From assembly GCA_020619395.1 (NCBI GenBank), contig GCA_020619395.1_4860.1: a DNA stretch of 64,000 nt; one strand, given 5' to 3'. Positions 36,035 through 55,989 of this stretch are shown in pieces. Positions within the stretch are counted from its first letter, which is position 1. Each line of letters starts with the position of its first letter. Source of the DNA: a phage. Under the pieces are notes generated by a model that had not been told where the DNA came from, did not search any database, and was given only the letters and a program-made list of their open reading frames with translations. The position numbers were made by a program, and so were the translations under genes.

Positions 36035-38212
36035 TTACGATAACGGTATCGTTGGCCGCACCCACGGTTTAGGGGCAGATTTGGTATACGGATTACATTC
36101 CATCATTTTACCGAGATACGCATCGTAATACACGAAGCGATCGACATAGAACCTCTCCACCGGTGTACTACTGGTAGCCGATTTCACCCGGTTGCGTTCC
36201 ACAGCGAGGCCAATCACCCCGGTAGGCGCGGGTTTTAGGGTGAACATTACCGCACGGTTGTAACGCCAAGTGTCGTGCACAATATCAAACTCCGATACAC
36301 TGTGTGCCATGATACCAAACAATGTGGTGGCTGGTAAGTTGGCTACAGCATCGCCGTATGGTGTTCCCACCAAACCGCCGGGTATGTTTTGCTTTTTGAA
36401 CAGCGTACCTGAAATAATCGTACCTAAGAACTCCACAACTACAGGTTTGGTTGGGTCGGTGACTTTATCTATCCCATCCGCACTGGCCAATCGGTTGGCA
36501 TCTAAATCTGCGAGGTAGTCGAGGAACTCTTGGTACTCGTCGGTGACATTCGGTTTCACCGTTCCGACGGATACCCAGTTGACGATACTTTTATTCCCAC
36601 CGACGGCTTCGCCTGCCATCCCAGGGCGAGTCCATGACATCCCGTCTTCACGACCGTAGACATAGACCGGCGAGCCGGTAGCCGGGGTGTTCCATTGCTC
36701 GAACGCTGTATATCGTCCCGGCTGGCCCCAATCGCCACCAGGACCGCCATAGTAGCGACTCTGGTAGCCGGTAAATTGTGCGACGACTAACTGGGTAGCA
36801 CCGCCTTTGTCACGGGACCCAGCTAAGCCGTTACGGTTATTGGTGCCGCTGGGTACCGCCGCGCCTGGCCCGAGAGGCGCACCACCAGCTCCACCGATCT
36901 TGGTGGTGCTAAACGCATAGTAGTCGCCCCCACCCCCACCTCCGGCGATGGTGCCGTAGTTTTCGATGGTGACTTTGCCGCGGAAGGCATCGGTAATGTG
37001 GATTGCGTCAGCTCCGTCTGCTGATGTGTTCGCAGGCAGAGAATAGACCATACCCGAACCACCACGACCAAGAATGGTTCCCCGGTTAACGAAGTTCCAA
37101 ACCACCTCGCCAATTTGCGGCAATTCGTCGATAACGAACGTCGGTTTCAGGTTGCTGTCGCGATAAACGAAAGCCCCCGCATCTACGGTCACGTTAACAA
37201 ACAAACGCCCGCACGCCGCATGGTTGGTCAACGTCGTGGCCCAGTAGCTGTCCGAAACTTGCGACGTAGTTGTGTAGTTCAGGTTAAGGGTTTGCTCGTT
37301 ATCTTGATAGCGTGCCACATTCAACGTGGCACTGCCCATGACTTTGTACGAACCCTCCACAGGTGCCAATTGCACTTGTCTTGGCCACTCGCCTGCCAGG
37401 TCCTCTACGGGAGCAATTTCGTTTACATCAAAAACACTCCGAATGCCGAGTGTCTCGATGGCCAGAGCATCATGCAGGCTACCGGTGAAATCATCCGGGA
37501 CGTATGTGGTTTTGCCTGCATATGTCTCGAGTTTGTTACGTGAAAAGAACACATACTTCGTTCCAAACATCCCGCTCCCCGGTCTAGCGGTCAAAGCCAC
37601 GACGCTGTTATACGCAGAGGTTTGGCCTATATCCTCCGGGGACATCGGGGCGCTGACATCGACTTTATCAAGATCCACGATCCGTTTGGTTGCATTAGAG
37701 TAGAAGTTAATCCACTGCTGTTTATTCGCAGCCTTTAGCGTGAGAATGATGTTGGTAACAGTGTAGACGGTGTTGATATCCACGTCACCGTTTATCACAT
37801 CTAGCGTTTGGCTGCCGTACCAGACAAGACTTGTCTGTTTCGCCTGGAACGTGATGCGCGCAGCATTGTTTGTCCAAGTGATAGGCAGGTCTTCAAAGTC
37901 GTCGGTTAAAAAGGTAATCCCCAGTAAAGTGTCTAAATGCGGCAACAGTTCGTGAATGGATGCACAAGTGGGAATGGCATCCAACTTAACCTTAGCGAAA
38001 TAATCAGCAATATTTTGCTTCGTGACTTGGGCCGTAATTTGACCGTAATTTGAATACCCCGGACCCCCTGTCAGTGTGACGTCTAGGGTTTTTTCGTCAC
38101 GATGCGCCACGGACACCAGGCGTACGTTAGCGGGGTCTACTGCTTTGGCGACCGCGTTTTTACGGTTGAGCGACCGAATCACGGTCGCCACTAAATCGGG
38201 AGTGTAGGACAT
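36035..38212 (-). CDS. paralogue-family structural protein (725 aa), Gly-rich C-terminal half
   Basis: N-terminal domain weakly similar to array paralogues; GGGGGDYYAF..GGPGGDWGQPG region; C-terminal YTKSAPKPW motif shared with 439 aa neighbour. Confidence 0.6.
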   Translation of the reverse strand: MSYTPDLVATVIRSLNRKNAVAKAVDPANVRLVSVAHRDEKTLDVTLTGGPGYSNYGQITAQVTKQNIADYFAKVKLDAIPTCASIHELLPHLDTLLGITFLTDDFEDLPITWTNNAARITFQAKQTSLVWYGSQTLDVINGDVDINTVYTVTNIILTLKAANKQQWINFYSNATKRIVDLDKVDVSAPMSPEDIGQTSAYNSVVALTARPGSGMFGTKYVFFSRNKLETYAGKTTYVPDDFTGSLHDALAIETLGIRSVFDVNEIAPVEDLAGEWPRQVQLAPVEGSYKVMGSATLNVARYQDNEQTLNLNYTTTSQVSDSYWATTLTNHAACGRLFVNVTVDAGAFVYRDSNLKPTFVIDELPQIGEVVWNFVNRGTILGRGGSGMVYSLPANTSADGADAIHITDAFRGKVTIENYGTIAGGGGGGDYYAFSTTKIGGAGGAPLGPGAAVPSGTNNRNGLAGSRDKGGATQLVVAQFTGYQSRYYGGPGGDWGQPGRYTAFEQWNTPATGSPVYVYGREDGMSWTRPGMAGEAVGGNKSIVNWVSVGTVKPNVTDEYQEFLDYLADLDANRLASADGIDKVTDPTKPVVVEFLGTIISGTLFKKQNIPGGLVGTPYGDAVANLPATTLFGIMAHSVSEFDIVHDTWRYNRAVMFTLKPAPTGVIGLAVERNRVKSATSSTPVERFYVDRFVYYDAYLGKMMECNPYTKSAPKPWVRPTIPLS

Positions 38213-38226
38213 GGTGACACCTTAGT

Positions 38227-39546
38227 CTATAGCGGTGGATACCAAGGGACCGGGGCGGTTTTGCTATATGGACTGTAGACCATATAGCCGCCTTTGCTTG
38301 GGTCGTAATAGATGAAATAGTTACAGTAATTCGAGTAAATGCTCGTCATTTGTTTGGATTGGTATCCGTTACGGTATAGTCCCTGGTAAGTAATAGCTGA
38401 TGTCGTGGTGGTGTAAGCAGTGTGGTACAGTACCCGACGCCGGTTAGCAATACTTTCTTGGAACATTTCTTCGGTCGGAAACGCGTGTTGCATCAGCCGT
38501 CGAATACTCCCGGTACAGTATCGAGTGCCATACGGGGAACCCGTTAAATCATCCGCAGTTTCAGGCGATTCTGCCCGAGTCAACACGTACTCGTTTTGAT
38601 ACAACGTGACGCTCATCGAATTTGGGCTGGTTTCCCGGAAACTCATGTAACGCGCATAACGTTCGACGTCCTCTTCCTGCGCCAAATAGGCCACGTTATT
38701 TTTCGGACCAAAGTGCAAGAAGAACGGACGGCGGAGATTACCCATATCCTCAGGTGGCGTCAACTTCACGCAGTAATTGTACTCCCCACGCATATCAGGG
38801 TCTAAGCCTGGGTTGTTATTGCGTGTAGCGACATACCCATAGAGGTCATACGGGTTATCAGTAGCAGCATTACCGATAGTGAACGGGATGCCCGACCATG
38901 CCGACAGCGCCGCGATGAACTGGGTCATGTACGAGTTACTGTTTAGTCGCAGCGGGGTACCCATCGGGATATTGATTATCTGTTGGGTGTACATGCTCCA
39001 GTCGAGTCGATAGACCGTGCTGTAAACATCCATGGGTTCCCAAGCTCCGGTTTCGGTGGTGTGGTACAAGTCGGCAAAGCTGGGCTCTTCACGAATAAAG
39101 CTAATAGGAATGTGACCCGTGAATGCGGGGTTATCCGATTTAATCGCCACCGTCCGATCGCCCGTTGCCACAGTGATCATTGCAAACTGGCTGTCAGGAT
39201 ACGTTAAATCGTCAGCAGTAAGCACCAGCCCACAAGCTGCGGAAATCCGGTCGATGATGTCGCGGTAGGACGTCGCCCGATAAGGTACTTTAACCGGTAC
39301 GCTGACGCCTTTAAAATACTGCGAAAGGTTTAAGCGGTCGTAGTAGATGTCCATCTTACCGCTGTAACCGCCACCCTGTAATCCGTTTACCACTATACGG
39401 CTGTTGCGGCCATCGCGCAAGGCATTGGTTAAAGGACCTTGTAATAACGCCACGTTGGTTGCGTTGAGTGGTTTCTTGAGCTGCGGGTTATCACGATTAA
39501 TCTGATCCCAAACCAGCTGCATGACAGGTTTGTTATAGTTGATCAT
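38227..39546 (-). CDS. paralogue-family protein (439 aa)
   Basis: N-terminal ..INRDNP..RNS..IYYDRLNL domain; C-terminal YSKTAPVPWYPPL. Confidence 0.65.
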   Translation of the reverse strand: MINYNKPVMQLVWDQINRDNPQLKKPLNATNVALLQGPLTNALRDGRNSRIVVNGLQGGGYSGKMDIYYDRLNLSQYFKGVSVPVKVPYRATSYRDIIDRISAACGLVLTADDLTYPDSQFAMITVATGDRTVAIKSDNPAFTGHIPISFIREEPSFADLYHTTETGAWEPMDVYSTVYRLDWSMYTQQIINIPMGTPLRLNSNSYMTQFIAALSAWSGIPFTIGNAATDNPYDLYGYVATRNNNPGLDPDMRGEYNYCVKLTPPEDMGNLRRPFFLHFGPKNNVAYLAQEEDVERYARYMSFRETSPNSMSVTLYQNEYVLTRAESPETADDLTGSPYGTRYCTGSIRRLMQHAFPTEEMFQESIANRRRVLYHTAYTTTTSAITYQGLYRNGYQSKQMTSIYSNYCNYFIYYDPSKGGYMVYSPYSKTAPVPWYPPL

Positions 39547-39557
39547 TGCAACGTCCT

Positions 39558-39593
39558 AAAAAAAGAAAATAGGCCCTTCAGGGCCTATTTTTA
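39558..39593. terminator. bidirectional rho-independent terminator
   Basis: stem aggccc-ttca-gggcct flanked by A-run and T-run. Confidence 0.7.
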
Positions 39594-39620
39594 GCTGTTA
39601 TGGTGAAGTACGCTATCCCT

Positions 39621-39713
39621 TTAACTCCAGCTGATTCGACCTGCGTGTTGGGGATTATCCCGCTGAATGAGCCGACACAACAGCTCAAGTGCAGTGGATG
39701 AGTAAAACCCCAT
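39621..39713 (-). pseudogene. 30-codon remnant of a family-A paralogue
   Basis: MGFYSSTALELLCRLIQRDNPQHAGRISWS* aligns with the N-termini of the A paralogues (MGLYSAPELELLCQQVVRDNPELAGRIS..); intact RBS aggag; premature stop. Confidence 0.5.
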
Positions 39714-39724
39714 ATTAGCTCCTG

Positions 39725-40627
39725 TTAGCTAAGAACCAGTTCGATAACGTGGACTACCGACGCGCTATTGGTCGAAGAGGTGTACGATGGTGTGTCTGGT
39801 GAGTTGCTGCGATAGTACCAGGGGGTGGCGTTGTCATAACCGTTGGCAAACAATGTTGCGCTTGAATCGGTTGGACTACCGCCGGAGCGCGCCGGTAAGT
39901 CGCCAAAACGTCTTACGACGCCCGCGTAGCGGAACAAGCTTGCGAACGTGTTGTGCCACTCGCCATCTTGAAAATAACCACCGCTGCTTAGGTAGGTGCT
40001 GTGCCCATAACTGTAGTCTCCGAGTCGAGGCAAACGTACCACATACTCGTAACCGTCTTTATTAAATGTCCGACGCTGGTTAGTGGTAGCGACGCCCCGT
40101 GGCGGGAAACCGTAGTCATCTGTTCCCCAGGCCAGACCTTGCTGGTATTGTTCGTTCCACGTCGTCCCTAAACGGGTCACCGTGTCAGGAATGAACAGAA
40201 TGCGTCCTTTGAAAACGAATTTATGGAACAATGTTGGAGCTTGGTTCCAGGCATTAAAGCCAATTAAACCATTCAGCTCGGCATGGTTAAGAATAAATTC
40301 TTCGTTTGTCAGTGTGCCAAAGTAGCCACGATGCCAATCGCCACGAATAAGTTCCTGTGGGCCGGGCCCTGTCATTGGAAAGTCGCCCTGTACAATCGGC
40401 AGCCCCATAACCTTTTCAGTGCCCTTTACCGCCACGATGCGATATTGATACGTTTTATACGCCTCGGTGGTCGTGTCCTCGTACGTCGTTGTGTTACCTG
40501 GTAGTGTTACAATAGGTTCCCCCGGTGCTACTGGGTTAACACTTTGTCTGGGGTTGTCGTAACGATAGATTTCAATGGAATCTAAAGTCTGACCTGGCTG
40601 TTGTTTCCAGTTTAAGATAATCGACAT
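39725..40627 (-). CDS. family-B paralogue 1 (300 aa)
   Basis: N-terminal Ig/FN3-like (..IEIYR..TY.Y.IVAVK) then TGPGPQ..GDWH.GYFG domain. Confidence 0.65.
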   Translation of the reverse strand: MSIILNWKQQPGQTLDSIEIYRYDNPRQSVNPVAPGEPIVTLPGNTTTYEDTTTEAYKTYQYRIVAVKGTEKVMGLPIVQGDFPMTGPGPQELIRGDWHRGYFGTLTNEEFILNHAELNGLIGFNAWNQAPTLFHKFVFKGRILFIPDTVTRLGTTWNEQYQQGLAWGTDDYGFPPRGVATTNQRRTFNKDGYEYVVRLPRLGDYSYGHSTYLSSGGYFQDGEWHNTFASLFRYAGVVRRFGDLPARSGGSPTDSSATLFANGYDNATPWYYRSNSPDTPSYTSSTNSASVVHVIELVLS

Positions 40628-40630: not shown

Positions 40631-41629
40631 TTACTCCACTAACTCGATAACGAATGCGTACAAACCGACCTTCTCAGCACTGTCAATTAACGTAACTTGG
40701 GAGAGGTTACGTTTCGACGTATTGGTTATGCTTGAATCGATAGGCGCAGACCCGCGAACCAGAACTAATCCCGATTCAGGATCACGTTCTTGGCACAAGA
40801 AACCTTTGCCTTGGTAAGCGCTACCGCTCCCATAAATGGACGCTGGACTAATATTAGTCCAGTTAGGGAGCATTTGTTTGTTAGGGATACAATCTCCGAA
40901 CGGATAAACAAAATCGTTATATTCGCAGCGACCATATTCCAAGTCATCATGGTCTGCGTTTCGCAACGATTCATCCAATGTCATTACTGTCGGTTCGTCC
41001 CCGTCGGTTAAACCGCGCAGCAATCGCATCCGATAGGTGTCGCCTTGCCATTCAAACAACCCACTCTGGTCAACACCTGCCAAATCCCCACGTCCGTTAT
41101 CAGGACCAAATCCATCAACACCGTACACAAGCCCCGCGTTATAAATGTCATTCCACGAGTAAAGTGTAGAGTTAAATCGTCCGCCGCTGTTCATCATGTA
41201 GTAAACTTTACCATGTCGATAAAACTTGTTCATGATTAGCGTGCCCGTGCCCGATATCCCTGTTAATGCACGAAAGCCTGCAGGCAACGCGTCATAGGTC
41301 ATCTGTTCTTCGAACGGCAACTGCCCCAGAAACGCCAAGTCGTCAGTATCGGAATAGTTAATCTGGTCGACGCCACCCACACCACGACGGTTTTTAATGA
41401 CAATGGATTTTTGTGGACTACCTACGGTACGGCCGTTAACAGTTACTGTTAAAAGATACCAGTAACGGGTGTTAAGAATAACGGTTTCGTCCGTCCATTC
41501 CGTTTCGCCATTACTTAAAGTTGCAATAGGGGCTGGTAATGCGGCTGTATTTATTTTAGCCGTGCCCCGATAAATGTTAACAATTGAACCTGCCGGATTT
41601 TCATTTTTCCAGCGTAGTGTGAATGCCAT
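40631..41629 (-). CDS. family-C paralogue 1 (332 aa)
   Basis: MAFTLRWKN..VNIYRGT N-terminus; paralogous to 43996..44985 and 47441..48439. Confidence 0.65.
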   Translation of the reverse strand: MAFTLRWKNENPAGSIVNIYRGTAKINTAALPAPIATLSNGETEWTDETVILNTRYWYLLTVTVNGRTVGSPQKSIVIKNRRGVGGVDQINYSDTDDLAFLGQLPFEEQMTYDALPAGFRALTGISGTGTLIMNKFYRHGKVYYMMNSGGRFNSTLYSWNDIYNAGLVYGVDGFGPDNGRGDLAGVDQSGLFEWQGDTYRMRLLRGLTDGDEPTVMTLDESLRNADHDDLEYGRCEYNDFVYPFGDCIPNKQMLPNWTNISPASIYGSGSAYQGKGFLCQERDPESGLVLVRGSAPIDSSITNTSKRNLSQVTLIDSAEKVGLYAFVIELVE

Positions 41630-41639: not shown

Positions 41640-43082
41640 TTAGAAGCCGTTCAACTCACCGTTCGCGGTTGCTAAATCTGTTTTAAGTGGAGGTTCTGCC
41701 TGAGTAGGCGGTAGTGGACGCGGTGCGTCGACGTGTGGTTCAAGTACAACCATCGGCCTAACTGTACCTACGCTGTTCGACACTGTCGATAACGGCAGCG
41801 CAGTATCGACGTTTGGTTCACCCACCACAATCGGGCTGATAGGTTCTTCCACCTGTTCCGCAGTTGTTGCTAGAGGTCTCGGCGCATCTGTTGTCGCAAC
41901 CTCGACTGCAAGAGGGCGAATGCTATCAGGTTGTGGTGATGGTACATTAGGAATAACCCTAACGCGCCACACAACATCCCCTTCCACATCAGCTAAAGAT
42001 AAGACGATGTCGTCCTTATTGATTTCCTCTAAAACAGGCCACCAGTAAGTGGTATCTGTAAGGGTTACCCATTCAACTGAGCCACCGCGCATATTGCAAC
42101 GTTGTACTTTAACAGGGTTACCCCCGGTTAACAGTTGTTGCGTGAAGAAGACGGTGGTTCTGGTTAACGTGGTGTCATTTGCCCAGTCGCCGCCCGTAGA
42201 ACCGTCACCGAGTTGTGAAATAAGCCACAACGGTGTGGCCTTTGATAAATCAGGGCTAACCGGAACGGAGACGCGGTAATAATGCGTCTTGTTATTCTCA
42301 GTTTTCGTGACAATCAAAGCCTGGTCAACAGGTTCGATACCGTCTGGATACGGACCAGTGTCACCTGTACCGAAAATGGCACCCGCTTGATAAAGGGCCG
42401 TCCAGGTTGCTGTTAACGTTCCGGTAGTCGGTAGATAAACAATCTTACCATCCTTGAAAAATTTCAACCATTCGAAAGTCATTTTCGTTGGGGCAACATC
42501 AGGACGAATTAGGTTGTTTAGTTCAGCAAAGGTAAATAACTCTTGCTGAGAAACGTGGCCGAAGTATCCGTTTGTGCTGTCCCCTGCCAACAAATATTTA
42601 TTGCCTGGCCCAGAATCTGGATAGTAGCCCACGGCTTCATTCAAATAATCGACCGGGATATAGCCGCGATAGCATACGCTATTATACGCGGTTAAATTAA
42701 TACGTGTTGGCGTTGCCAGCGATTTGATAGGCGCGTCTACCGACTGTACACTGCTATCAGATAACCAAACACCGTATAAATCGCGTAGAGCTGGGAGAAG
42801 ATCCCGCACGGTCTTGGCCGTTTGTGGTACGTAGACGCGCGGAGCTATTTTAAATAGATCTGATAATGTTAAACGGTCGTAATAAACCGTGCACTCCCCA
42901 GAGAAACCTTTACCGGGTTTACCTACCAACGTAATTACCGTGTTACGACCATTCTTAGTGGTCTCGGCAGGAATACCCCTCACCCCAATCGAATCAGCGC
43001 TGATTCTTCCTGCGAGTTCAGGGTTATCCCTTACGACTTGTTGGCAGAGCAATTCCAGTTCGGGTGCGCTATACAATCCCAT
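41640..43082 (-). CDS. family-A paralogue 1 (480 aa)
   Basis: N-domain (RDNP..RNT..VYYDRLTL), SGPG..GYFG..ELF domain, C-terminal NGELNGF; RBS aggag. Confidence 0.65.
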   Translation of the reverse strand: MGLYSAPELELLCQQVVRDNPELAGRISADSIGVRGIPAETTKNGRNTVITLVGKPGKGFSGECTVYYDRLTLSDLFKIAPRVYVPQTAKTVRDLLPALRDLYGVWLSDSSVQSVDAPIKSLATPTRINLTAYNSVCYRGYIPVDYLNEAVGYYPDSGPGNKYLLAGDSTNGYFGHVSQQELFTFAELNNLIRPDVAPTKMTFEWLKFFKDGKIVYLPTTGTLTATWTALYQAGAIFGTGDTGPYPDGIEPVDQALIVTKTENNKTHYYRVSVPVSPDLSKATPLWLISQLGDGSTGGDWANDTTLTRTTVFFTQQLLTGGNPVKVQRCNMRGGSVEWVTLTDTTYWWPVLEEINKDDIVLSLADVEGDVVWRVRVIPNVPSPQPDSIRPLAVEVATTDAPRPLATTAEQVEEPISPIVVGEPNVDTALPLSTVSNSVGTVRPMVVLEPHVDAPRPLPPTQAEPPLKTDLATANGELNGF

Positions 43083-43093: not shown

Positions 43094-43993
43094 TTAAGGC
43101 AGAACGAGTTCAAGTACCGCAATGGAGCGTATTGTAGTGGTACCGTAGTTACTCCATGCCGGCGACTCAGGGTAAGGTGGACGGTTGTACCACTGACTGG
43201 ACGTGTTATTCATAGCCGCAAAGAATGCAGATTGTTGGGCAGTAACCGAATCGATTGAACCGACCGGAAGGTCGTCAAAGCGCGGAAACTGCCCACTGTA
43301 GTTGTACAGGCGCGCGAAGGTGTTAAACCACTCACCGTCGAGATACAACTCAGTGTTACCGCTTCCAACGTAAGACGTCCAGTATTTGTAGTCGAACAAA
43401 TACGGCAAGCGCACCACGTATTCGTAACCGTTCTTCGCCACCGTGCGGCGTTGGTTACGTGCAGTAGCCCAGCCCGGTACATATCCATTGCCATCCTGGC
43501 CGTACATCATCCCCTGGTTATAAATGAACTGCGGGCTAGCGTTTATTATCGAGTTATCGGACATAAACAGAATACGGTTTTTGTAAATGAATTTATGCCA
43601 GGCACCAACGGCGGAACTGAACATATTCACCACGAGGCCGTTCAGTTCCGTGTTAGTGAATAACTCTGCTGGCGTTACTGTTCCAAAGTATCCAGCGTGC
43701 CAGTCGCCGTATAACAGTTTCTGGGGGCCAGGCCCGGTGTCTAAAAAGAACCCTTGGGCGGTAGGGGTGTTGAAGACACGCTCACCGTCTTTAACCGCAG
43801 CTATCCAATAACGGTAAGTGGTGTTGTTTTCCACAGCGTTGTCTTCGTACGATGTAGCGTCACCCGGAAGGGTTGCCAGAGGCGTTCCCGGTGCATTAAC
43901 ATCAATTGTGGCGTTGCCCGGCGTCTTGCGATAGATTTCGATGTTATCGAGCGCCTGTGGCTTCCGTTGTGCAAAGTGTAATGTAATAGGCAT
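43094..43993 (-). CDS. family-B paralogue 2 (~300 aa)
   Basis: ORF runs to 44029; ATG at 43993 (MPITLHFAQ..) has RBS gagga and abuts upstream stop. Confidence 0.65.
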   Translation of the reverse strand: MPITLHFAQRKPQALDNIEIYRKTPGNATIDVNAPGTPLATLPGDATSYEDNAVENNTTYRYWIAAVKDGERVFNTPTAQGFFLDTGPGPQKLLYGDWHAGYFGTVTPAELFTNTELNGLVVNMFSSAVGAWHKFIYKNRILFMSDNSIINASPQFIYNQGMMYGQDGNGYVPGWATARNQRRTVAKNGYEYVVRLPYLFDYKYWTSYVGSGNTELYLDGEWFNTFARLYNYSGQFPRFDDLPVGSIDSVTAQQSAFFAAMNNTSSQWYNRPPYPESPAWSNYGTTTIRSIAVLELVLP

Positions 43994-47440: not shown

Positions 47441-48439
47441 TTACTCGACCAGTTCAAAGATAGGGTAGTAGCGCCCTTTCGTGGTGGGTGATAAATAGTT
47501 TATACGCTGAATCGTGGATACGGGTGTTCCACCGGCATTGTTAAAAATACCACGATGGAGCACACGGTCTTCCGCGGTATCGTGTTCCATACAGAGAACA
47601 CCACCGCCGAAATACTGTGCCAAGGTTCCCAAAGTACCTTGCCCCAGATAAGTATAACCGATTGTTGCCCAGTTAGCCCAACGCTGTTTCTTCGGCACCT
47701 CGTTAACCATCGTGTAAAGTAAATCGTTATACTCACACGGGTTGGTTAGAGAAGCGATTTCATCATGGGTTTTCCCATTATAGTCAGCTACGAAAGGATA
47801 CGCAGGAGGCTCGCTAGACATCGTCAGGCCGCGAGGAAGACGCATGATGTACGTATCCCCTTTGTGGACTATCTTAGCGTCTTGTGGAGTGGCCGGTAGC
47901 GTTCCATGGCCGTTCTCTGGACCAGCATCGCCCGTACCATAGACTAAACCAGCTTGATAGAGGGAAGCCCAGTCCACAGGCGTATTCGGGAACTGCGACG
48001 TGCTAGATAGCATGTAATAGATCTTCCCGTTTCGGGTAAATTTATACAACGCCACACGATCGGTTAGTAGGTTAGGGAACATCGCCAAAAATGCAGGTGG
48101 CATTTGCGACGGAAGCCACTGTTCGTCGTAAGGAACCGCACCCATAAACCCTAAACGGTCGTCACCGTTTAGAATAGTCATTGGACCGATCCCACGCTTT
48201 ATCTCAATGGTGTATTTCTGGCTAGACGATGCCACTGTTTTACCGTTGGCGGTTACCGTCAGAAGGTAATAATAGGTTGCGCCTGGTGTGGCGGTGGTAT
48301 CACGCCATTCTGTCTCGCCATTTGAGAGCGTTGCAATCGGTTCAGGCAAAGCGCTTGGTGTGATATCTTTAACATCACGGTAGATTTTTACTACCGTAGG
48401 GATTACGTTTGGATTTTTCCAACGCAAAGTAAAAGACAT
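47441..48439 (-). CDS. family-C paralogue 3 (332 aa)
   Basis: MSFTLRWKN..VKIYRDV. Confidence 0.65.
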   Translation of the reverse strand: MSFTLRWKNPNVIPTVVKIYRDVKDITPSALPEPIATLSNGETEWRDTTATPGATYYYLLTVTANGKTVASSSQKYTIEIKRGIGPMTILNGDDRLGFMGAVPYDEQWLPSQMPPAFLAMFPNLLTDRVALYKFTRNGKIYYMLSSTSQFPNTPVDWASLYQAGLVYGTGDAGPENGHGTLPATPQDAKIVHKGDTYIMRLPRGLTMSSEPPAYPFVADYNGKTHDEIASLTNPCEYNDLLYTMVNEVPKKQRWANWATIGYTYLGQGTLGTLAQYFGGGVLCMEHDTAEDRVLHRGIFNNAGGTPVSTIQRINYLSPTTKGRYYPIFELVE

Positions 48440-48450: not shown

Positions 48451-49863
48451 CTACTTAAAGCCGTCCAGTTCACCGTTAAGAGACGTTAACGTTGTCTTGT
48501 CAGGGGGCGTATACATTTCAGCGGTAGCCGCAATAGGTTGGAAGTCGACTGTCTTCGGCAGCATTAAAGCAGGCGGATGCAGTGCGAAACTGTTTTCTGA
48601 AGTAACAACTACCGGTTCGAAATCGGTAGTATCCGGATTACCGAGCACTAACGGCTTGAGACTAAATGTGTTTTCTGCGGACACGCTGCACGGTTGGAGA
48701 CTGTAATCTGCCGTACCGTGGATATCTTCTAAACCCAAGGTAACTGTGGACTTATCCACCAACTCCAGCACCGGGAACCAGTAGTAGTTGCCCGCACTCG
48801 ATGATTTTTCTAAGTTTGTCCAACTTGCTCCAGACAACGTCGCCATGCGATGATTGGCGACGTTGGTCTTCAGTGTATCTTTCAATAAACAGAACAGCGT
48901 CCAGTAACTGTTAATCGGTTTGTCCCACGTTCCATTATACAGAAAGTTGAACATCTCAAACTCACTACCTGCTAACTCAGCGGCAGTTGGGGTGCCGCTG
49001 ACGTATGGGTCTTTCCCGGCACTAGGTAGACGAACGCGGAAGTAAAACCTTTTGTTGTCTGCGCCTGTAAAGCTAATGATGCGTCCCTGGTTAACGGGCG
49101 TCGCCGCAGGGTATTTACCATTATCGTCTGTTCCGTAAACGAGTCCGTTTGTATATAACGTATTCCAGGAGATGGAGCTAGCGACAGGACTGATCGGAAG
49201 GTAAATAACCCTACCCTGGTAAAAGAACTTGTACCAACCTTCGGCACCAGAATGTACCGGTGGTAACGCACCGGCCGATATAGTGGCATTAAGAAGTTGA
49301 GAGTGTGTAAACAACTCTGCAGTTCTGGTTGTTCCGAAATAACCCGCGATAGTGTTACCTTGCAGCAACGTTTTAGGGCCAGGTCCAGAATCGGGGTAAA
49401 TTGCACCACTCGGGACGGTATAACGTATCGTTAAGCTGCCTGTAAACGCAGGGCAATTGCCTGAGATATTTAATTTCAACGTCTGCGGCGAAACGCTCGG
49501 TTTAGGTAAACTTGCGTCAGGTGACTGCAAATCAGAAGCAACTAATGTAAGCCCCAATGCGTCGTTTATTGCAGGTAGCGCGTCTCGTACCGTTAAGACT
49601 GTATCTTTGATAGCCACAGTCGGCACAAAATTAAATAAAGTGGCCAGGTTAATCCGGTCGTAGTACACGGTAACATTACCTTGTACACCTGTCCCTGGAT
49701 ACCCGGTGAAAACAGCTTTGGTGTTACGTTGGTTTAACGTAACTGAAGTTGGGCCACTGGTTAAAGCAGCGATAGCCGGCGTCAGCTTAACAACTAAATC
49801 AGGGTTATCCCGATTGACTTGGTCGTATACAAGCAGTGCCGACTCCTTCGAGTAAAATAGCAT
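48451..49863 (-). CDS. family-A paralogue 3 (470 aa)
   Basis: MLFYSKESALLVYDQVNRDNP..; C-terminal LNGELDGFK. Confidence 0.65.
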   Translation of the reverse strand: MLFYSKESALLVYDQVNRDNPDLVVKLTPAIAALTSGPTSVTLNQRNTKAVFTGYPGTGVQGNVTVYYDRINLATLFNFVPTVAIKDTVLTVRDALPAINDALGLTLVASDLQSPDASLPKPSVSPQTLKLNISGNCPAFTGSLTIRYTVPSGAIYPDSGPGPKTLLQGNTIAGYFGTTRTAELFTHSQLLNATISAGALPPVHSGAEGWYKFFYQGRVIYLPISPVASSISWNTLYTNGLVYGTDDNGKYPAATPVNQGRIISFTGADNKRFYFRVRLPSAGKDPYVSGTPTAAELAGSEFEMFNFLYNGTWDKPINSYWTLFCLLKDTLKTNVANHRMATLSGASWTNLEKSSSAGNYYWFPVLELVDKSTVTLGLEDIHGTADYSLQPCSVSAENTFSLKPLVLGNPDTTDFEPVVVTSENSFALHPPALMLPKTVDFQPIAATAEMYTPPDKTTLTSLNGELDGFK

Positions 49864-49911: not shown

Positions 49912-50742
49912 TTAGCTGTTATAGTGGTAGTACGCCACGCCTTTCACGCCTTCCTCATCGATACCCGTTTGGATAACCACGCGGTCGTACGATTTGTTAG
50001 CGAACTGAGCGGTGGATGTCGGCACATCCTGAACGGTGTTACTGTTCAGTGGCCCCGCGTAGTTCGGAATACCCAGGTCATCCAACACCTTACGCAAACC
50101 AGCCCACTGCGGTAGGCCAGAAGCATCTACTGTCAGTAGGTTTTTATACGCGGTAAAGTCAATACCGTACGTCAACAAATCAATACACTTCTTACCGAGA
50201 GACGGTGAAATAGGCTCTTGAATCGCATTCAAGACATCTGATTTCACCGAAGTGTCTAGTACCGGTAAACCACGGTTATAACGCAACGTCGCAGAACCGA
50301 TATAAGCCGGAGATGTCGATAGCGCTGCAATGGTCTGTGTATTGGTGTAATTTGGGGTATTGGCACCAAACAGTGAGTAGTTTTGGATATCGATTGCGGA
50401 GAAGTTTACTCCGTAAGTATCCAAGAGCACCGAAAAGGCTGAGTGGAGGTTGGGCGCGTCAAACGTGACGAACTGCGCCTGGACAGAAGGACCCCACGGC
50501 AATAACCGCGCTAAGTTCACACGGTCGTAGTAAACGGTGATTGCGTCTCGAAATCCGGAACCCTGAATACCGCGCAAGCGTGCCGACGTATTGCGGTTGT
50601 TGGAAGCTGCATTAACGGGAACCTGCGTCACTTTCTCCACGTAGCAGTTTGCCGGCGACGCTTTAATAGGTAGGTTTGGGTTATCCCGGTTAATGAGGTC
50701 AAAGACCAACTCGTTTGACGGCTTAGCATAGTTGATCATCAA
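49912..50742 (-). CDS. family-D paralogue 1 (276 aa)
   Basis: N-domain MMINYAKPSNELVFDLINRDNP..VYYDRVNL; C-terminal YYHYNS. Confidence 0.65.
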   Translation of the reverse strand: MMINYAKPSNELVFDLINRDNPNLPIKASPANCYVEKVTQVPVNAASNNRNTSARLRGIQGSGFRDAITVYYDRVNLARLLPWGPSVQAQFVTFDAPNLHSAFSVLLDTYGVNFSAIDIQNYSLFGANTPNYTNTQTIAALSTSPAYIGSATLRYNRGLPVLDTSVKSDVLNAIQEPISPSLGKKCIDLLTYGIDFTAYKNLLTVDASGLPQWAGLRKVLDDLGIPNYAGPLNSNTVQDVPTSTAQFANKSYDRVVIQTGIDEEGVKGVAYYHYNS

Positions 50743-51630
50743 TTATACCTCGCTTGGATCGTCCAGATCGTTGAACTGGAGATACAACGTTCCGACGATG
50801 GTGGTACAGGTAACAGGCAGTTTCAACACCAGCGCATACTTGTACTTCGCGTTTGTCGGCATTGCAACAGGGTCATTCAGACCAACGCTGATAACCTCCG
50901 CGCCCGCCAAACCGTAGGAAGCGGAGGTGGTCGCTACCCATGCAGTACCCGTGATATCTTTCAGCAGGTTAACCATATCCGTTAACGGCTGTCCGGACAG
51001 AATACCCGGCACGTATGCCAGCAACTCATCACGGTATTTGGTGAAGTTGTACGGGTAGGAATAAACCTCTGCAATGACCGCAGTAACGGTTTCGGAACCC
51101 ATCTGACCGTTCGGGTATTTCAGACCGGTCAGGACGTTAGTGGTGACCGCAGAGACTAACGACTCATCGCCTTTCACGACTTTAAATGTCGCCTGTCCAA
51201 CCCAACCGATAGACTCAGGATGTGCAACAACACGCACAGTTCCTTCGGTCTTATCACCGTTCCATTCGATATCTGCGTCCTGCAGGTCAGCTTCTTCCAG
51301 AACAAAACCGTAACGTTGGTTCAGTCCAGGAATGGCCGCATACAAGGTTTCGTTGGATGGGCCGATCGCCAACGTGTCACCAATCAGCACTAACAAGTCT
51401 TCGATTTTCATGCGGTTGTAGAAGACATTTTTCTTACCCGACCAGGTAGAGCCCGTTACCCCATCTGCCGTAATTTTAATTTGCGTGTTACGGTTAGTCA
51501 GCGTTTCCTTCTCCGTACCACGGATGTCCTTTGGCGAGGACCAGATGATGTCAGTCATCTTAACAGCAAGCGAGTTCTGTGCGTTCACTGCTGCCAACAG
51601 GACGTCTTTAGAAGGTTGATAAATAGCCAT
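50743..51630 (-). CDS. family-D paralogue 2 (295 aa)
   Basis: N-domain; C-terminal LYLQFND. Confidence 0.65.
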   Translation of the reverse strand: MAIYQPSKDVLLAAVNAQNSLAVKMTDIIWSSPKDIRGTEKETLTNRNTQIKITADGVTGSTWSGKKNVFYNRMKIEDLLVLIGDTLAIGPSNETLYAAIPGLNQRYGFVLEEADLQDADIEWNGDKTEGTVRVVAHPESIGWVGQATFKVVKGDESLVSAVTTNVLTGLKYPNGQMGSETVTAVIAEVYSYPYNFTKYRDELLAYVPGILSGQPLTDMVNLLKDITGTAWVATTSASYGLAGAEVISVGLNDPVAMPTNAKYKYALVLKLPVTCTTIVGTLYLQFNDLDDPSEV

Positions 51631-51640: not shown

Positions 51641-52480
51641 CTAGTTGTTGTAGTGCAACATACACTCGCCGATTACTTTCGGGTCGTTCTGAATGCCGGT
51701 AATCAGCAATACGTTATCGTACGCTTTATTGGCGGTCGCCAACTCACTCGTTTTGTAGCGGGTAATTGTGCAGTTCGTCGGATCAAACGACGGTACCCCA
51801 CGTGCGACCAATGTGGCCATCAGATTGGACGTGTAACCCAAATCAAAGTTACTTCCTACGTCCATTCGCCCGTTCTTAAACGAGGCCATAACCTGCACTT
51901 CATCAGTAAAGTCTTCCCCGTACGTCAAGAAGCCCATGTATTTCTTACCAGTGCTTGCTGCTGCAGGGTGGTTCAAAGCCGACAAGATGTCGTTTACCAC
52001 GAGGTCTTCGAGACTATTCTTACCCCGGATAGACATAAAGGTGATGCTGCCAGTGTATTGGATACAGCTAGCGTTAATGCGCATCGTGTTGTTTACGTTC
52101 AGATAAACGTATTGTTCTGGGATATCGTCTGCAACCAGGTTTAATCCATAACGACCGTTCAGGTTCTGCGCAAACGCAGTACGTTTCGACTCCACGTTCA
52201 ACCAACCGTAGGCATTCGGTGCAGTTACCTGAGGTGTCATGTTCTTAAATAAGTCGTTCAGCGACAAGCGCTTATAACGGAACGTCTGAGGACCGATATA
52301 GCCACGACCTTGACGACCACGAATGATAATCTCAGTATTGGCACCGCTTGCTGTCGGTGTGATTGCTTTCGGCGTACCGATGATAGCATTGTCTAAACCC
52401 ATCGGTAGAACAGCATCCGGGTTTTCGGCATTAATCGCATCGTACAGATATTGTCGCTGAGACAGACTATATAAAGCCAT
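51641..52480 (-). CDS. family-D paralogue 3 (~279 aa)
   Basis: ATG at 52480 (MALYSLSQ..) with RBS gaggagg; C-terminal MLHYNN. Confidence 0.65.
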   Translation of the reverse strand: MALYSLSQRQYLYDAINAENPDAVLPMGLDNAIIGTPKAITPTASGANTEIIIRGRQGRGYIGPQTFRYKRLSLNDLFKNMTPQVTAPNAYGWLNVESKRTAFAQNLNGRYGLNLVADDIPEQYVYLNVNNTMRINASCIQYTGSITFMSIRGKNSLEDLVVNDILSALNHPAAASTGKKYMGFLTYGEDFTDEVQVMASFKNGRMDVGSNFDLGYTSNLMATLVARGVPSFDPTNCTITRYKTSELATANKAYDNVLLITGIQNDPKVIGECMLHYNN

Positions 52481-52516
52481 AATAGCCTCCTCGGCCAAAA
52501 AAGAAAGGAGTAGCCA

Positions 52517-52537
52517 GGAGGAGGATTTCCTCCTCCC
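52517..52537 (-). terminator. hairpin ggaggagga-ttt-tcctcctcc, terminator or attenuator
   Basis: 9 bp stem inside the array; T-run follows 12 nt later on minus strand. Confidence 0.4.
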
Positions 52538-52549
52538 AGCGAGGCCTAA

Positions 52550-53461
52550 TTAGGCATTAAAGTGCAGGTACATGACGCCCTGGAAGTTGGTGCACAGAGT
52601 GTCATCCAGCTGCAGCAGCAGAACCTGGTTGTAAGCAGTGTTTGCACCTTCAACCGGTTTCTTAGGATCGTCGCCTGAAGCAGTGCCATCGTCAGTAGTA
52701 GAACCAACGTACAACACGTTAGCACCTTTCAGGTTATAATCCGCAGGCTCATCAGATGCAACCCACAGTTCCGGCACAACTTTATTCAGCTCAACCGGGA
52801 ATGCAGAGTCGCCAGCGATAACACCTTTCGCCTGTACTTTCAGGAATGCTGCGATTGCTGTGCAGTCTACACCGTAAGAGTAGATGTAGCCCTGACCCTT
52901 CGCTTCGCTTGGACCATCTGGGTAAACCAGGCCGTCGAGCTTGGTTTGTGTTACCACCAGACTCAGACGTTCACCAACCTGAGGCTTAGCACCGATTTTA
53001 ACCGGGATGCTGCCCAGATATGCGTAGCAGTCTTCTTTGAAGGTAATGACATGGTCAACCGGTGCTGGGTCCGGATCGTTCGGGTTAGTCAGCGGCGGGT
53101 TGGTATTTTCCGGAATAGCCGCCGGAACGATATCGTCTTCGGTCAGCTTCAATCCATATTGGTTGTTCAGGGTCGTCAGCAGGTCTGTGGTGGTTTTCGG
53201 CAGTTTAACGTCGAGGTATGCTGTTACGTTACGGAACAGCGCACCGCCTTCCAGGCGATTATAAGTCACGTCCTGAGTACCGATGTACCCGGAGTTCTTT
53301 TTCGCAGTCAGGGTCATGCTGGTATTGCGATCGGCACCTCCATCGATAATAGGGGTCGGTGTGCCGAGCGTTATTTTAGAAAGTTCCAGTTCTGCGTCTG
53401 GGTTTTTCTCATTAATAAAATCCAGAACCAGCTGATCGGACGTTTTGTTTAAAGGTTTCAT
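52550..53461 (-). CDS. family-D paralogue 4 (303 aa)
   Basis: N-domain; C-terminal MYLHFNA. Confidence 0.65.
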   Translation of the reverse strand: MKPLNKTSDQLVLDFINEKNPDAELELSKITLGTPTPIIDGGADRNTSMTLTAKKNSGYIGTQDVTYNRLEGGALFRNVTAYLDVKLPKTTTDLLTTLNNQYGLKLTEDDIVPAAIPENTNPPLTNPNDPDPAPVDHVITFKEDCYAYLGSIPVKIGAKPQVGERLSLVVTQTKLDGLVYPDGPSEAKGQGYIYSYGVDCTAIAAFLKVQAKGVIAGDSAFPVELNKVVPELWVASDEPADYNLKGANVLYVGSTTDDGTASGDDPKKPVEGANTAYNQVLLLQLDDTLCTNFQGVMYLHFNA

Positions 53462-53482
53462 TCTTACTTCCTTTACTCAGGA

Positions 53483-54328
53483 TTAATCAGGGTCGTTGTA
53501 GTGCAAATACAAACGCCCGCCAAAATTCAGACAGTACAACGACAGCTCCACAATCAGCACGTTGTCGACTGCTGGGTTGGTTGGTAATTCCGCTTTGTTA
53601 CGCCCGTTATAGACGACGACGGCTTCACGAAGGTTAAAGTCGATTGGGTTACGGTACGTTGTCCAGTTATCACCGGTGACCGTTTTGAGAATCTGTGCCA
53701 GACGTTCTGCGGTTATCGCAGCACCTAGTCGTTGAAATTCCTCCGCGAAATTATCAAAGCGCCAGGGATACGAATAAACTGCACCTTGACCGACCTTGAT
53801 GTTAAAATACGGATACTCGTAAGGTGTTACTGTTAAGGGTTCGAAGTTTGCAGGAAGCAACGCATCGCCTGGTAACAGCTGTACCTGTTGTTGCCCTATC
53901 CAACCTAAAGAAGTGGGCGTGGCAATCAGATCCACACGCCATGTCTTCCTGTCGATTTCGGTATTCACCACATCTGCAGGTTTAAGGCTGAGACCGTAAT
54001 ACTGGTTAATTAACCCGACCACGTCATGCATCTGGTAAACGGCATCGAGACGTGCAGGAACACGTAGAGGTTGAATCCCGTCTGGGTCGGTAAACATGTC
54101 TGCGAAGTCAACACGATCGTAATACACGGTAGTGGCACCGATAGCATTAGCGGTGGCCAATGCCTGAATGCGCACCATCGCGTTATGACCATTGGCTTTT
54201 GCCAGGTCTTCGTCAGACGTCGGAATCGCAGGGACACCGAAAACCACATCTTCGACTTTTAAATCGAGATTGTTTTCGACGTTAACCTCCGCGATAATAA
54301 TCTTTTCAGCAGTGGCTAAAAGTGGCAT
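53483..54328 (-). CDS. family-D paralogue 5 (281 aa)
   Basis: N-domain; C-terminal LYLHYNDPD. Confidence 0.65.
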   Translation of the reverse strand: MPLLATAEKIIIAEVNVENNLDLKVEDVVFGVPAIPTSDEDLAKANGHNAMVRIQALATANAIGATTVYYDRVDFADMFTDPDGIQPLRVPARLDAVYQMHDVVGLINQYYGLSLKPADVVNTEIDRKTWRVDLIATPTSLGWIGQQQVQLLPGDALLPANFEPLTVTPYEYPYFNIKVGQGAVYSYPWRFDNFAEEFQRLGAAITAERLAQILKTVTGDNWTTYRNPIDFNLREAVVVYNGRNKAELPTNPAVDNVLIVELSLYCLNFGGRLYLHYNDPD

Positions 54329-54338
54329 GTCAAAATCC

Positions 54339-55181
54339 TTATATCGGGAGATAGTGAAGGATGAGATTACCGGCGTAGTTGCTGTCCGCAGCTAGCTTGA
54401 TAATCGCCACACGCTGATAATCGGGGTTGTAACTATCGTTCGGTGTGACTGAAGTTATCCCCATAAATCGCGCACCTTGGAGTGCAATTTGTTCAGGTTG
54501 CGCAGTCGCCCCCGTCACATATGCAAACTTTAATGGCACCACTTCGTTCAGCAATTCAACATCCGCCGCGGTGATTGCGCGGTTGTAAGCCCAATCGGTA
54601 GTGAACTGTTTTTGCAGTTCAGTCCAATCGTAACCATACGCCACATACTCAGCCTGTGGTTTACTAGCAACCACGAACGGCGCGATAATTGCGCTGAGGT
54701 CAACATCCGTCACCACATCCGCCAAGTTCGGGAAGAACTTCGCAAAGCGTAAACGGAAACCACCTTGCCAGGCCAAGCAACCAGGCTTAATAGTCACATC
54801 GATTAACCAGCTTTCTCCCAAATCTTTTACTGACTGGTCAACGATATCGTCGGCAACTAAAGACAAGCCGTATTTCGCATTCAGAAACGGCAACAACTCA
54901 GAGAGTTTATTTACCGGGTCGGCAACGACTACCGGTATTACGTTCCTGAACAGAATTTCCATTTCGATACGGTCGTATTCGAGCGTAACGTTGCCTTTGT
55001 AGCCCTTGCCGTTCAACCCGTATAAGAGCACACGCGTATTCCGGTCAGCGCCAGGCGTTTGGACAGACTCAGGGAAGCCAGTTGCAACCTGCTCCCATGT
55101 GAGTGGATTGGCCGTTAATCCGTTCTGTCGGTTAATAGCATCTAACAACATCTCTTTCGAGGGCTTATCGTAAATAGACAC
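54339..55181 (-). CDS. family-D paralogue 6 (280 aa)
   Basis: GTG start with RBS aggaggg; C-terminal LILHYLPI. Confidence 0.6.
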   Translation of the reverse strand: MSIYDKPSKEMLLDAINRQNGLTANPLTWEQVATGFPESVQTPGADRNTRVLLYGLNGKGYKGNVTLEYDRIEMEILFRNVIPVVVADPVNKLSELLPFLNAKYGLSLVADDIVDQSVKDLGESWLIDVTIKPGCLAWQGGFRLRFAKFFPNLADVVTDVDLSAIIAPFVVASKPQAEYVAYGYDWTELQKQFTTDWAYNRAITAADVELLNEVVPLKFAYVTGATAQPEQIALQGARFMGITSVTPNDSYNPDYQRVAIIKLAADSNYAGNLILHYLPI

Positions 55182-55191
55182 CTATACCCTC

Positions 55192-55989
55192 CTAGTTGTT
55201 AAAGTGTAGGTTGAGGCTGCCCTGGAAGTTCGTACATTTATCGGTCAGTTGCACTGACACGACTTTCGCGAACGCCGTATTTGCTCCCGGCAAGTCTGCA
55301 GGTACGCCGTCGAATACGACAGTGGCACCACGCAGGTTATACGGGGATGGGGTATCTTCAGCTACCCAAATCTCAGGAACACATTTGTTGAGTTCGATTG
55401 CCAACGCCGTGTCATCTACCTCGATACCGACCGCTAAGAGGCTCAGGAAACGAGAGATGTGGCTACAATCGATGTCACGCGAATAGATATACGCCTGACC
55501 CAACTGGATGTCCTGGTGATCCGGGTACAGAAGACCGCTCAACTCTGTATTGGTTACTACTTCTGCCAGAGGTGTAGCAGGTTTCAGCTCGATGACCGCT
55601 TGACTTCGCCACTCGTGGGAAGTTTCAACAGCAACGACTGTGTGCGTCTGTCCATCAATGGGGTTATCTTCGATATCCTCAGGTAAGATAGACAGATTAA
55701 AACGCTCGTTAATCGCCGCGAGTAAGTCGTGCGTGGTTTGCACGTCCTCGTCTCCAAAGGCAACATCGCCTTTAAGGTAGTCCTCTAATGGACGACGATG
55801 GTAGTCCACAATCACTTGCGTACCTTCATCACCGCGCATCTTCGAGGTAAGGACTACCTCCGAATCACGACCGTCTACTGACACAACCTCCGGCAGTCCG
55901 ATATCAACATCGTCAAAGGTAAGCGGTGGGCTTATCTTATTCTCTTCGTTGATGAGTTTTAGCAGATTCTGTTTTGAAGTAAAAGACAT
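55192..55989 (-). CDS. family-D paralogue 7 (265 aa)
   Basis: first gene of the array; C-terminal LNLHFNN; weak RBS. Confidence 0.6.
   Translation of the reverse strand: MSFTSKQNLLKLINEENKISPPLTFDDVDIGLPEVVSVDGRDSEVVLTSKMRGDEGTQVIVDYHRRPLEDYLKGDVAFGDEDVQTTHDLLAAINERFNLSILPEDIEDNPIDGQTHTVVAVETSHEWRSQAVIELKPATPLAEVVTNTELSGLLYPDHQDIQLGQAYIYSRDIDCSHISRFLSLLAVGIEVDDTALAIELNKCVPEIWVAEDTPSPYNLRGATVVFDGVPADLPGANTAFAKVVSVQLTDKCTNFQGSLNLHFNN

Follow-up and report, generated by a model that had tools for sequence, protein, structure and literature searches.

The N-terminal domain of DUF7941 heads a family of modular virion proteins in a phage closely related to SPN3US

The stretch of phage DNA analyzed here (64,000 nucleotides, contig GCA_020619395.1_4860.1 of GenBank assembly GCA_020619395.1; hereafter the window, numbered from its first letter) encodes 13 proteins that begin with the same domain of about 150 residues, the N-domain, and continue with different modules. 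Twelve of them, all named in a first-pass annotation made from the letters alone, lie on the minus strand within 36035-55989. The identity of this interval is 99.1% to Salmonella phage 1252 and 98.3% to SPN3US, a giant phiKZ-like phage of the genus Seoulvirus. Each of its 18 minus-strand genes has one counterpart among SPN3US gp138-gp155 by the original numbering, which is anchored by RefSeq YP_009153432 as gp138 and YP_009153462, the 5.2-kb gene, as gp168. Seven related proteins, D1-D7, are gp138-144; three A-B-C triplets are gp145-153; protein E (439 aa) is gp154, and protein F (725 aa) is gp155. The family has been described before, as paralog family B of SPN3US and as DUF7941, and the annotation was a rediscovery of it in the phage in which it was first noticed. 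The papers on the SPN3US family (Thomas et al. 2016, PMC5105663; Ali et al. 2017, PMC5694885; Scheuch et al. 2023, PMC10052503) recognized an unusually large family of virion paralogues and measured its abundance and its head/tail fractionation; the name comes from Ali et al., who added gp83, gp160/161, gp237, and the candidate gp122 (PMC5694885). As described there, in a genome with 98% nucleotide identity to the window, the family consists of gp138-154, gp160, gp83, gp237, and candidate gp122. It was defined by PSI-BLAST without a domain map, internal or ejection roles were suggested, gp155 was not listed as a member, and the head assignment was not tied to adhesin-type modules. The family accounts for ~8% of an SPN3US-type genome and for roughly 20 virion proteins.

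Detection, extent, and fold of the N-domain

Hidden Markov models (HMMs) based solely on D1-D7, with either the first 100 or the first 170 residues, were searched against the window's 492 six-frame open reading frames (ORFs) with a length of 50 aa or more. The D proteins themselves were matched at E 1e-30 to 1e-66, A1, A2, and A3 at E 4.5e-16 to 2.6e-27, and E at E 3e-19 and 1e-25; the 170-residue model matched F at E 2e-16. Beyond the carriers and a remnant of gp122 described below, the next-best match had an E value of only 0.07, so that the matches to the shared domain are far beyond chance. Because matches were not confined to family D, the recurrence of the D N terminus in the three A proteins, E, and F, as proposed in the first-pass annotation and now also supported by Pfam, is real. 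The count of at least 12 proteins given there likewise holds, but a 13th carrier, G (gp160, 175 aa; 32616-33143, minus strand), lies outside the range proposed for the family; it was matched by the D-only HMM at E 3e-9 and by Pfam at 43.3 bits.

The Pfam profile DUF7941 (PF25613) has 276 positions and a gathering score of 27 bits. All 276 positions are covered in D1-D7, which score 229-293 bits. Scores are 79-110 bits for A1-A3, 94 for E, 82 for F, and 43 for G; in A, E, and F, only profile positions 1 to ~153-170 are aligned, and in G likewise only the N-terminal half. The six B and C proteins in the interval have no PF25613 match and no N-domain, and a search of NCBIfam with eight proteins (D4, A1, B1, C1, E, F, G, and the chaperone homologue described below) gave no matches. 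The HMM and Pfam extents, together with the domains in AlphaFold2 (AF2) models (residues 1-160 in D7 and 1-150 in A1, with a predicted local distance difference test score (pLDDT) of ~90), give a length of ~150 aa rather than the ~80-100 aa first proposed. F (Pfam DUF7941 E 5.2e-23, in two stretches) has two N-domains in tandem, delimited with our own HMM at aa 11-152 (37757-38182) and aa 176-304 (37301-37687), and its relationship to the family, which had been called weaker, is therefore not weak. One further protein, gp161 (a DUF4376 protein, window 31863-32534), was considered as a family member and rejected, as it has no match to the N-domain or module HMMs and is non-virion by mass spectrometry (MS). 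The gp161 named in the text of PMC5694885 probably means gp160, since Table 1 of that paper enters gp160 under family B.

A 14th carrier is present in cut-down form. The minus-strand ORF 62366-62680 contains the first 69 codons of gp122, fused out of frame (62366-62644), and gives a weak N-domain match (E 0.002-0.01); the intact gp122 of SPN3US is matched at E 4e-17. The remnant results from a 2.9-kb deletion relative to SPN3US and phage 1252 that has its junction at 62437-62458 with a 21-nt overlap and affects 61539-62680. It has eliminated gp123 (tail) entirely, together with the C-terminal part of gp122 and the greater part of gp124, a tail protein of 113.7 kDa that MS had detected. Its junction is spanned by 0 of 34 related phage records, and it could be a natural variant, a laboratory variant, or an assembly artefact. 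When the same scan was repeated on the complete SPN3US genome, pieced together from five loci (1942 ORFs), the N-domain was found in 16 proteins, namely the 12 of the cluster, gp160, and gp237, gp122, and gp83; the last three are short and consist of the N-domain only.

The AF2 model of D7, computed with 27 sequences, has a mean pLDDT of 81.6 and comprises a compact α/β N-domain (residues 1-160, ~90), a linker (162-193, <50), and a small C-domain (194-276, ~80). The model of A1 (mean pLDDT 76.8) comprises the N-domain (1-150), a globular domain designated X (~155-375, ~85), and a disordered tail (380-470). The α/β globule of the N-domain is monomer-like and contains neither a coiled coil nor a β-helix. 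It shares its fold with residues 1-150 of phiKZ gp127 (PDB 9XQD chain 0), the only structural relative found; a single-sequence search of the PDB with D7 returned nothing relevant, and the 27-sequence profile was needed to reach gp127. The N-domain of gp127 is the part modeled on the periphery of the phiKZ baseplate, where, according to the phiKZ atlas, every one of the six baseplate lobes has a band of gp139 dimers that ends in one gp127 (PMC13250141). The phiKZ case differs from the present one in that gp127 is a single copy per lobe of the baseplate star, capping the gp139 dimers, and in that phiKZ has only ~3 family members. The proposal that the N-domain is an anchor can be kept in part. 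A role in attachment is plausible by analogy with gp127 and with the model for Goslar considered below, but a trimeric anchor of the tail-fiber type is unsupported, given the compact α/β globule, the one copy of gp127 per baseplate lobe, and the presence of the proteins in the tailless-head fraction.

Modules, relatives, and orthologues

The arrangement of modules downstream of the N-domain was derived from all-against-all BLASTP and module HMMs; all genes described in this section are on the minus strand. D1 (265 aa, 55192-55989), D2 (280 aa, 54339-55181), D3 (281 aa, 53483-54328), D4 (303 aa, 52550-53461), D5 (279 aa from the MALY start, 51641-52480), D6 (295 aa, 50743-51630), and D7 (275 aa, 49912-50739) are full DUF7941 proteins with N-domain, linker, and C-domain. 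Pfam E values for D1-D6 are 7.5e-68, 6.6e-71, 1.5e-79, 6.8e-85, 3.2e-80, and 2.9e-82, respectively, and D1 is also matched by the HMMs of the N-domain and the D C-domain. The latter HMM matches only the seven D proteins in the window, apart from a weak match to the N-domain of G (E 0.002) that was treated as noise. The GTG start of D2 at 55181 agrees with the MS-revised start at SPN3US nt 116201, the MALY start of D5 with an MS N terminus in SPN3US that has P1' = A, and the shorter start of D7, MINY, is supported by the published MS N termini (Table S6, PMC10052503).

In the A proteins, the N-domain is followed by X (aa ~155-375), whose homologue in B and C makes up the C-terminal two thirds of these proteins, and then by a tail of ~90 aa. 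A1 (470 aa, 48451-49863) has a disordered tail ending in TSLNGELDGFK; A2 (498 aa, 44998-46494; Pfam E 4.6e-30, positions 1-153) and A3 (480 aa, 41640-43082; Pfam E 4.6e-22) have the same order of N-domain, X, disordered tail, and terminal peptide. The B and C proteins begin with an FN3-like region of 80 aa and end with the end of the X domain (..ELVE or ..ELVLP). They are B1 (332 aa, 47441-48439), C1 (307 aa, 46508-47431), B2 (329 aa, 43996-44985), C2 (299 aa from the MPIT start, 43094-43993), B3 (332 aa, 40631-41629), and C3 (300 aa, 39725-40627), all assigned with the module HMMs (X and FN3 for B1) and, for B1 and C1, also with the FN3-like profile, which reached PDB entries 3mpc at E 1.1e-4 and 4u49 at E 1e-3. 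A longer ORF of C2 from a TTG codon (311 aa, to 44029) overlaps the end of B2 by 34 nt; this start is probably not used and the downstream ATG is used instead, because the MS N terminus of SPN3US gp150 is Met-trimmed with P1' = P. X may be likened to the C-type lectin-like binding domains known from fiber tips and variable proteins (Bdellovibrio Bd2740, 8OKS; Treponema TvpA, 2Y3C; Legionella Lcl, 8Q4E), and there is no family membership at the sequence level. The label "glycosyl hydrolase" attached to B/C in Proteus phage 7 was rejected for lack of a catalytic-domain match and probably reflects their FN3-like N terminus.

E (38227-39546) consists of the N-domain (1-~160; Pfam E 1.5e-26, positions 1-170), a unique middle part, and a C-domain (~300-439); residues 156-439 gave no matches in the PDB. 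F (36035-38212) has a Gp38 domain and a C-domain (~582-725) after its two N-domains. The C-domain of ~140 aa is common to E and F, as found by BLASTP (E 334-438 versus F 614-720, E 5e-7) and by an E/F C-domain HMM. The Gp38 adhesin domain of F (aa 373-553, 36554-37096) matches PF05268 with 66 bits against a cutoff of 25 (E 5.7e-18; profile positions 61-214 of 218) and phrog_2056, annotated as tail fiber host specificity. This part corresponds to the glycine-rich receptor-recognition region of the T2/T6-type Gp38 adhesin, and the same fusion occurs in 9 of 59 relatives with long extensions (see below). F differs from the T-even protein in that the N-terminal part that binds the gp37 tip (PF05268 positions 1-60, unmatched in F) is replaced by two DUF7941 N-domains, which take up aa 1-304, and in having the additional C-terminal domain shared with the 439-aa protein.

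G has a short tail after its N-domain that ends in TTNGELDGFV, and the tails of A1-A3 and G finish with one peptide, K-T/I-x-L-x-x-x-N-G-E-L-D/N-G-F. An HMM of this peptide matched only A1-A3 and G in the window (E 1.5e-7 to 8e-11, the latter for G), and the peptide is kept at the extreme C terminus of A homologues that are only 24-47% identical overall. The modules behind the N-domain are thus different, as the first-pass annotation stated, but they are not all unrelated, since X is common to A, B, and C, the C-domain to E and F, and the tail peptide to A and G; the shuffling of domains that it proposed reaches further than it had noted.

A profile of 14 N-domain copies was compared with 1.84 billion cluster representatives and gave 3435 relatives at E<=1e-3, of which 1774 have E<=1e-10. 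The best 150 relatives are 152 to 2032 aa long. Among the best 149, the first copy begins within 25 residues of the N terminus in 142; one copy is present in 79, two in 51, three in 16, and 4-12 in tandem in the remaining three. The extension past the last copy is <40 aa in 50 of these proteins, 40-160 aa in 40, 160-400 aa in 46, and >=400 aa in 13. In the 59 relatives with long extensions, Pfam domains include GP38 (9), Laminin_G_3 (3), Ig_2, SPRY, BNR, a trans-sialidase C-domain, DUF285, arabinofuranosidase, and 3-keto-disaccharide hydrolase, from which it follows that an N-terminal DUF7941 domain followed by a surface-binding or glycan-active module is a general pattern. On whether DUF7941 is confined to phiKZ-like jumbo phages (chimalliviruses), a tblastn search with D4 matched 110 phage records, with genomes of 210-322 kb among the matches listed; the 3435 metagenomic relatives are without taxonomy.

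D7 is 18-30% identical to the other D proteins in the window, and the A-B-C triplets are 30-47% identical to one another. In contrast, orthologues of D7 with the same length and 57-89% identity occur in Erwinia and other Salmonella phages (57-82% in Erwinia), and the DNA repeats in the window are few, short, and 66-79% identical. Recent duplication or gene conversion was therefore rejected, and the duplications are old. Each paralogue is kept as an orthologue across Salmonella, Erwinia, and Cronobacter phages. The D set, old and conserved in every member, suggests fixed, non-redundant positions rather than free exchange. Cronobacter phage CR5 belongs to another genus; its set comprises nine D-like genes, a single A-B-C triplet, E, F (also with two N-domains), and G including the terminal peptide. 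In Escherichia phage vB_EcoM_Lh1B exactly the A3-B3-C3 cassette is absent. With one ordered triplet in CR5, two in Lh1B, and three in the window, A-B-C behaves as a cassette of variable copy number. Because the order of A, B, and C is constant and the number of peptide-spectrum matches (PSM) per kDa is, in a rough calculation, comparable within triplets, it is conceivable, as a speculation, that the three X domains of a triplet co-assemble.

Virion location and possible filaments

A preprint on Goslar (10.64898/2026.04.21.720040), in which SPN3US is not mentioned, describes ten DUF7941 members, three of which have the N-terminal module followed by carbohydrate-binding, glycoside-hydrolase, or leucine-rich-repeat domains. 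AlphaFold3 gave head-to-tail dimers, purified gp22 formed filaments in negative stain, and gp22 and gp23 were present in ~580 and ~2140 copies per virion. Its authors propose that the N-domain acts as the acceptor for linker and C-domain of the following subunit and that a "DUF7941 fibre cloud" is anchored at the peripheral baseplate. The family studied here resembles that of Goslar in three respects: an N-terminal globule, disordered linker, and C-domain are found in the AF2 model of D7; an abundant full-length member is accompanied by an abundant member made of N-domain plus tail (here gp141 and gp160); and other members bear host-recognition domains after the N-terminal module. It differs in having 16 rather than 10 members per genome, in having lectin-like A-B-C cassettes and Gp38 where Goslar has carbohydrate-binding, glycoside-hydrolase, and leucine-rich-repeat modules, and in that SPN3US proteomics place the proteins with the head and not at the baseplate; polymerization of the SPN3US-type proteins is a proposal made by analogy.

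On balance, we lean toward an explanation in which the DUF7941 proteins form a head-to-tail polymer that displays binding modules for capture of the host surface and is retained at the head or neck. From the Goslar preprint we infer that the N-domain would be the socket of a non-covalent polymer, in which a flexible segment of one subunit docks on the N-domain of the next. In the D proteins, this segment would be the linker with the C-domain, and in the A proteins and gp160 it would probably be the conserved C-terminal peptide KTxLxxxNGELDGF. The product would be thin, flexible, external filaments with gp141 (D4) and gp160 (G) as their bulk, or shaft, into which the low-abundance paralogues could insert or which they could cap, showing their binding modules: the three C-type-lectin-like A proteins, each with an FN3-plus-lectin-like B and C, and the Gp38-type protein F with its two N-domains. 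The filaments would serve in the capture or recognition of the host surface, and the SPN3US assembly would remain at the head or neck of tailless particles and would thus be more than a simple fiber of the baseplate.

The abundances are consistent with these assignments. Wild-type SPN3US virions yielded 2239 PSM for gp141, 1750 for gp160, and 1038 for gp143 (D6, of middle abundance) (PMC10052503), and gp141 and gp160 were estimated at >300 copies each (PMC5694885). D4 is the most abundant full-length member and is a candidate for the bulk filament subunit, as a counterpart of Goslar gp22; G, highly abundant and made of N-domain and tail, resembles gp23. The many tandem arrays among the relatives fit a role of the N-domain as a bead in a chain, and two metagenomic relatives, P0108 (1166 aa) and P0119 (1496 aa), which have 8-12 tandem N-domains in one polypeptide, would be a covalent version of the proposed chain. 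The Gp38 domain of F and the nearby homologue of a tail (fiber) assembly chaperone (213 aa, SPN3US gp157; 34409-35050, minus strand; phrog_1158 E 1e-65 and RefSeq annotation) were also counted in favor of host recognition by filaments.

Several points weigh against this explanation. In the monomer models, linker and tail have pLDDT values below 50. That the linker of the D proteins (..VVTxxxLxGLxYP) might be the same element as the peptide ending A and G (..NGELDGF) was considered and rejected as unsupported, since the peptide HMM matched no D linker in the window. The filament model comes from one preprint (10.64898/2026.04.21.720040), and filaments have not been seen on virions. Table S2 of PMC10052503 sets wild-type (WT) virions against particles that lack tails, from the tail-tube amber mutant 255(am107); step and buoyant-density CsCl gradients served to purify both. 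The normalized head/WT ratio is 0.89-1.67 for gp138-gp155, gp160, and gp83, the reference ratios being 1.39 for the major capsid protein and 1.40 for the portal, and the Gp38-like gp155 (626 PSM) has a ratio of 0.89; tail proteins have ratios of 0-0.07, with 0.004-0.013 for gp168-170 (PMC10052503). This fractionation contradicts, for SPN3US, the universal baseplate anchoring of the preprint, and it is also compatible with a location inside the head. Free, self-assembled filaments that merely co-purify with the heads are an unlikely source of the result, the heads having been banded in buoyant-density CsCl: on general grounds, pure protein filaments should not band together with DNA-filled heads in a density gradient, and most of the family should therefore be attached to the head or neck or lie inside the head.

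A more specific proposal is tentative. The phage may have a second host-recognition apparatus on the head or neck, separate from the baseplate fibers and made of ordered heteropolymeric DUF7941 filaments with a gp141/gp160 shaft, the seven conserved D proteins as links, each specific to a position, short N-domain-only proteins of the gp83 type as anchors, and, at the tips, the Gp38-type adhesin and lectin-like complexes of A, B, and C, with 1-3 cassettes depending on the phage. The gp83 gene (SPN3US 82918-83445) lies between those of gp82 and gp84, both tail proteins by MS, two genes from the portal gene gp81, and gp83 is head-associated by MS with a ratio of 1.20 (PMC10052503); gp237, encoded two genes away from gp239 (tape measure), was classed as tail at a ratio of 0.06, and gp122 gave 22 PSM in wild type and 0 in heads (PMC10052503). 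Through gp83 and gp237, DUF7941 chains could be attached to neck and tail. If the proposal is true, the "largest paralogue family in any phage" would serve externally, in adhesion, and not as internal head cargo, and the baseplate-cloud model would not apply to the SPN3US lineage. The domain map links SPN3US proteomics, the Goslar filament model, and the phiKZ baseplate structure, three strands that do not cite each other, and their combination exposes a concrete conflict over the site of filament attachment. It also points to gp141 and gp160 (shaft), gp155 (Gp38-type adhesin), and the A-B-C cassettes as candidate genes for host range and adsorption, which is relevant to the therapeutic use of Seoulvirus phages.

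Two alternatives to head- or neck-retained filaments are unlikely to a similar degree. The first, that the paralogues are internal head or ejection proteins packaged in the capsid, where the N-domain would target or organize them, goes back to a first suggestion for SPN3US gp141 and gp160 ("Head ejection?"). It would account for a level in tailless heads equal to that of the capsid and of known internal proteins (PMC5694885, PMC10052503) and for the high copy numbers of gp141 and gp160, and SPN3US heads are rich in internal protein that is organized unlike that of phiKZ (PMC7552025). However, the prohead protease cleaves no family member, and the N termini are intact or only Met-trimmed (Table S6, PMC10052503); there is no propeptide. 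Processing does occur in gp53 and gp54, the major internal proteins. The fused modules are typical of external recognition (Gp38, lectin-like, and FN3 in the family, sialidase and glycosidase domains in relatives), the homologous phiKZ gp127 is modeled on the outer side of the baseplate (PMC13250141), and Goslar gp22 forms filaments alone. An external location of the family is favored, although not proven, because its members are unprocessed and include adhesin, lectin-like, and FN3 modules, phiKZ gp127 is external, and gp22 self-assembles.

The second, which was the view of the first-pass annotation, is a classical set of tail fibers in which an oligomeric, for example trimeric, N-domain plugs receptor-binding proteins into the baseplate; we regard it as improbable. 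The Gp38-type adhesin, the fiber chaperone homologue, and the gp167-170 fiber/baseplate homologues within ~10-25 kb are what such a set would lead one to expect, as are the position of phiKZ gp127 on the baseplate periphery and the tail-like behavior of the short paralogues gp237 and gp122. Yet all 18 proteins of the cluster and gp160 stay on tailless heads, whereas the true fiber proteins gp168-170 fall to ~1%. Moreover, the N-domain lacks the coiled coil or β-helix of an oligomeric anchor, gp127 occurs once per baseplate lobe, and the copy numbers of gp141 and gp160 far exceed what baseplate sites could accommodate. The stoichiometric co-purification of the proteins with tailless heads means that exchangeable distal domains on a simple tail anchor are a poor fit to the experimental data.

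Least probable is a decoration of the capsid in the manner of Hoc, in which the N-domain binds the capsid lattice and the modules are displayed over the head without filaments: head association, intact N termini, and display-type domains would agree with it, but Goslar gp22 self-assembles into filaments, the common tandem arrays of N-domains are more easily explained by a chain than by binding to a lattice, the abundance of most paralogues is near that of the portal and not at multiples of the capsomers (a rough estimate from PSM/kDa), and no such decoration is mentioned in the searched text on the phiKZ capsid and the SPN3US 30-Å map, which is absence of evidence only.

Neighboring loci

The chaperone homologue is two genes downstream of F, with an endolysin gene between them. 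Lysis-type genes flank the chaperone homologue within the structural block: that of the 217-aa endolysin (35339-35992, minus strand) and that of a 171-aa protein (33884-34399, minus strand) that matches part of the endolysin group phrog_894 at E 2.8e-26. Directly upstream of the D genes, 56052-61411 (minus strand) contains about a dozen small ORFs of ~100-170 aa, all hypothetical in SPN3US, and none of them was matched by the module HMMs.

On the plus strand, 12717-27102 encodes consecutive homologues of SPN3US gp170, gp169, gp168, and gp167 (1237, 1376, 1742, and 412 aa), which constitute the phiKZ gp131-like fiber/baseplate "paralog family C" and are tail-associated by MS. All four are matched by phrog_2163, in the N-terminal part of the three large proteins and over the whole of the 412-aa protein, after which they diverge; these genes are a second case of a common module heading different proteins. 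A baseplate assembly protein is encoded at 9976-10908. Between the DUF7941 region and the fiber genes, 29087-31358 (plus strand) contains two adjacent genes for radical-SAM-domain proteins (316 and 442 aa), and the pair is found in the same place in Cronobacter phage CR5.

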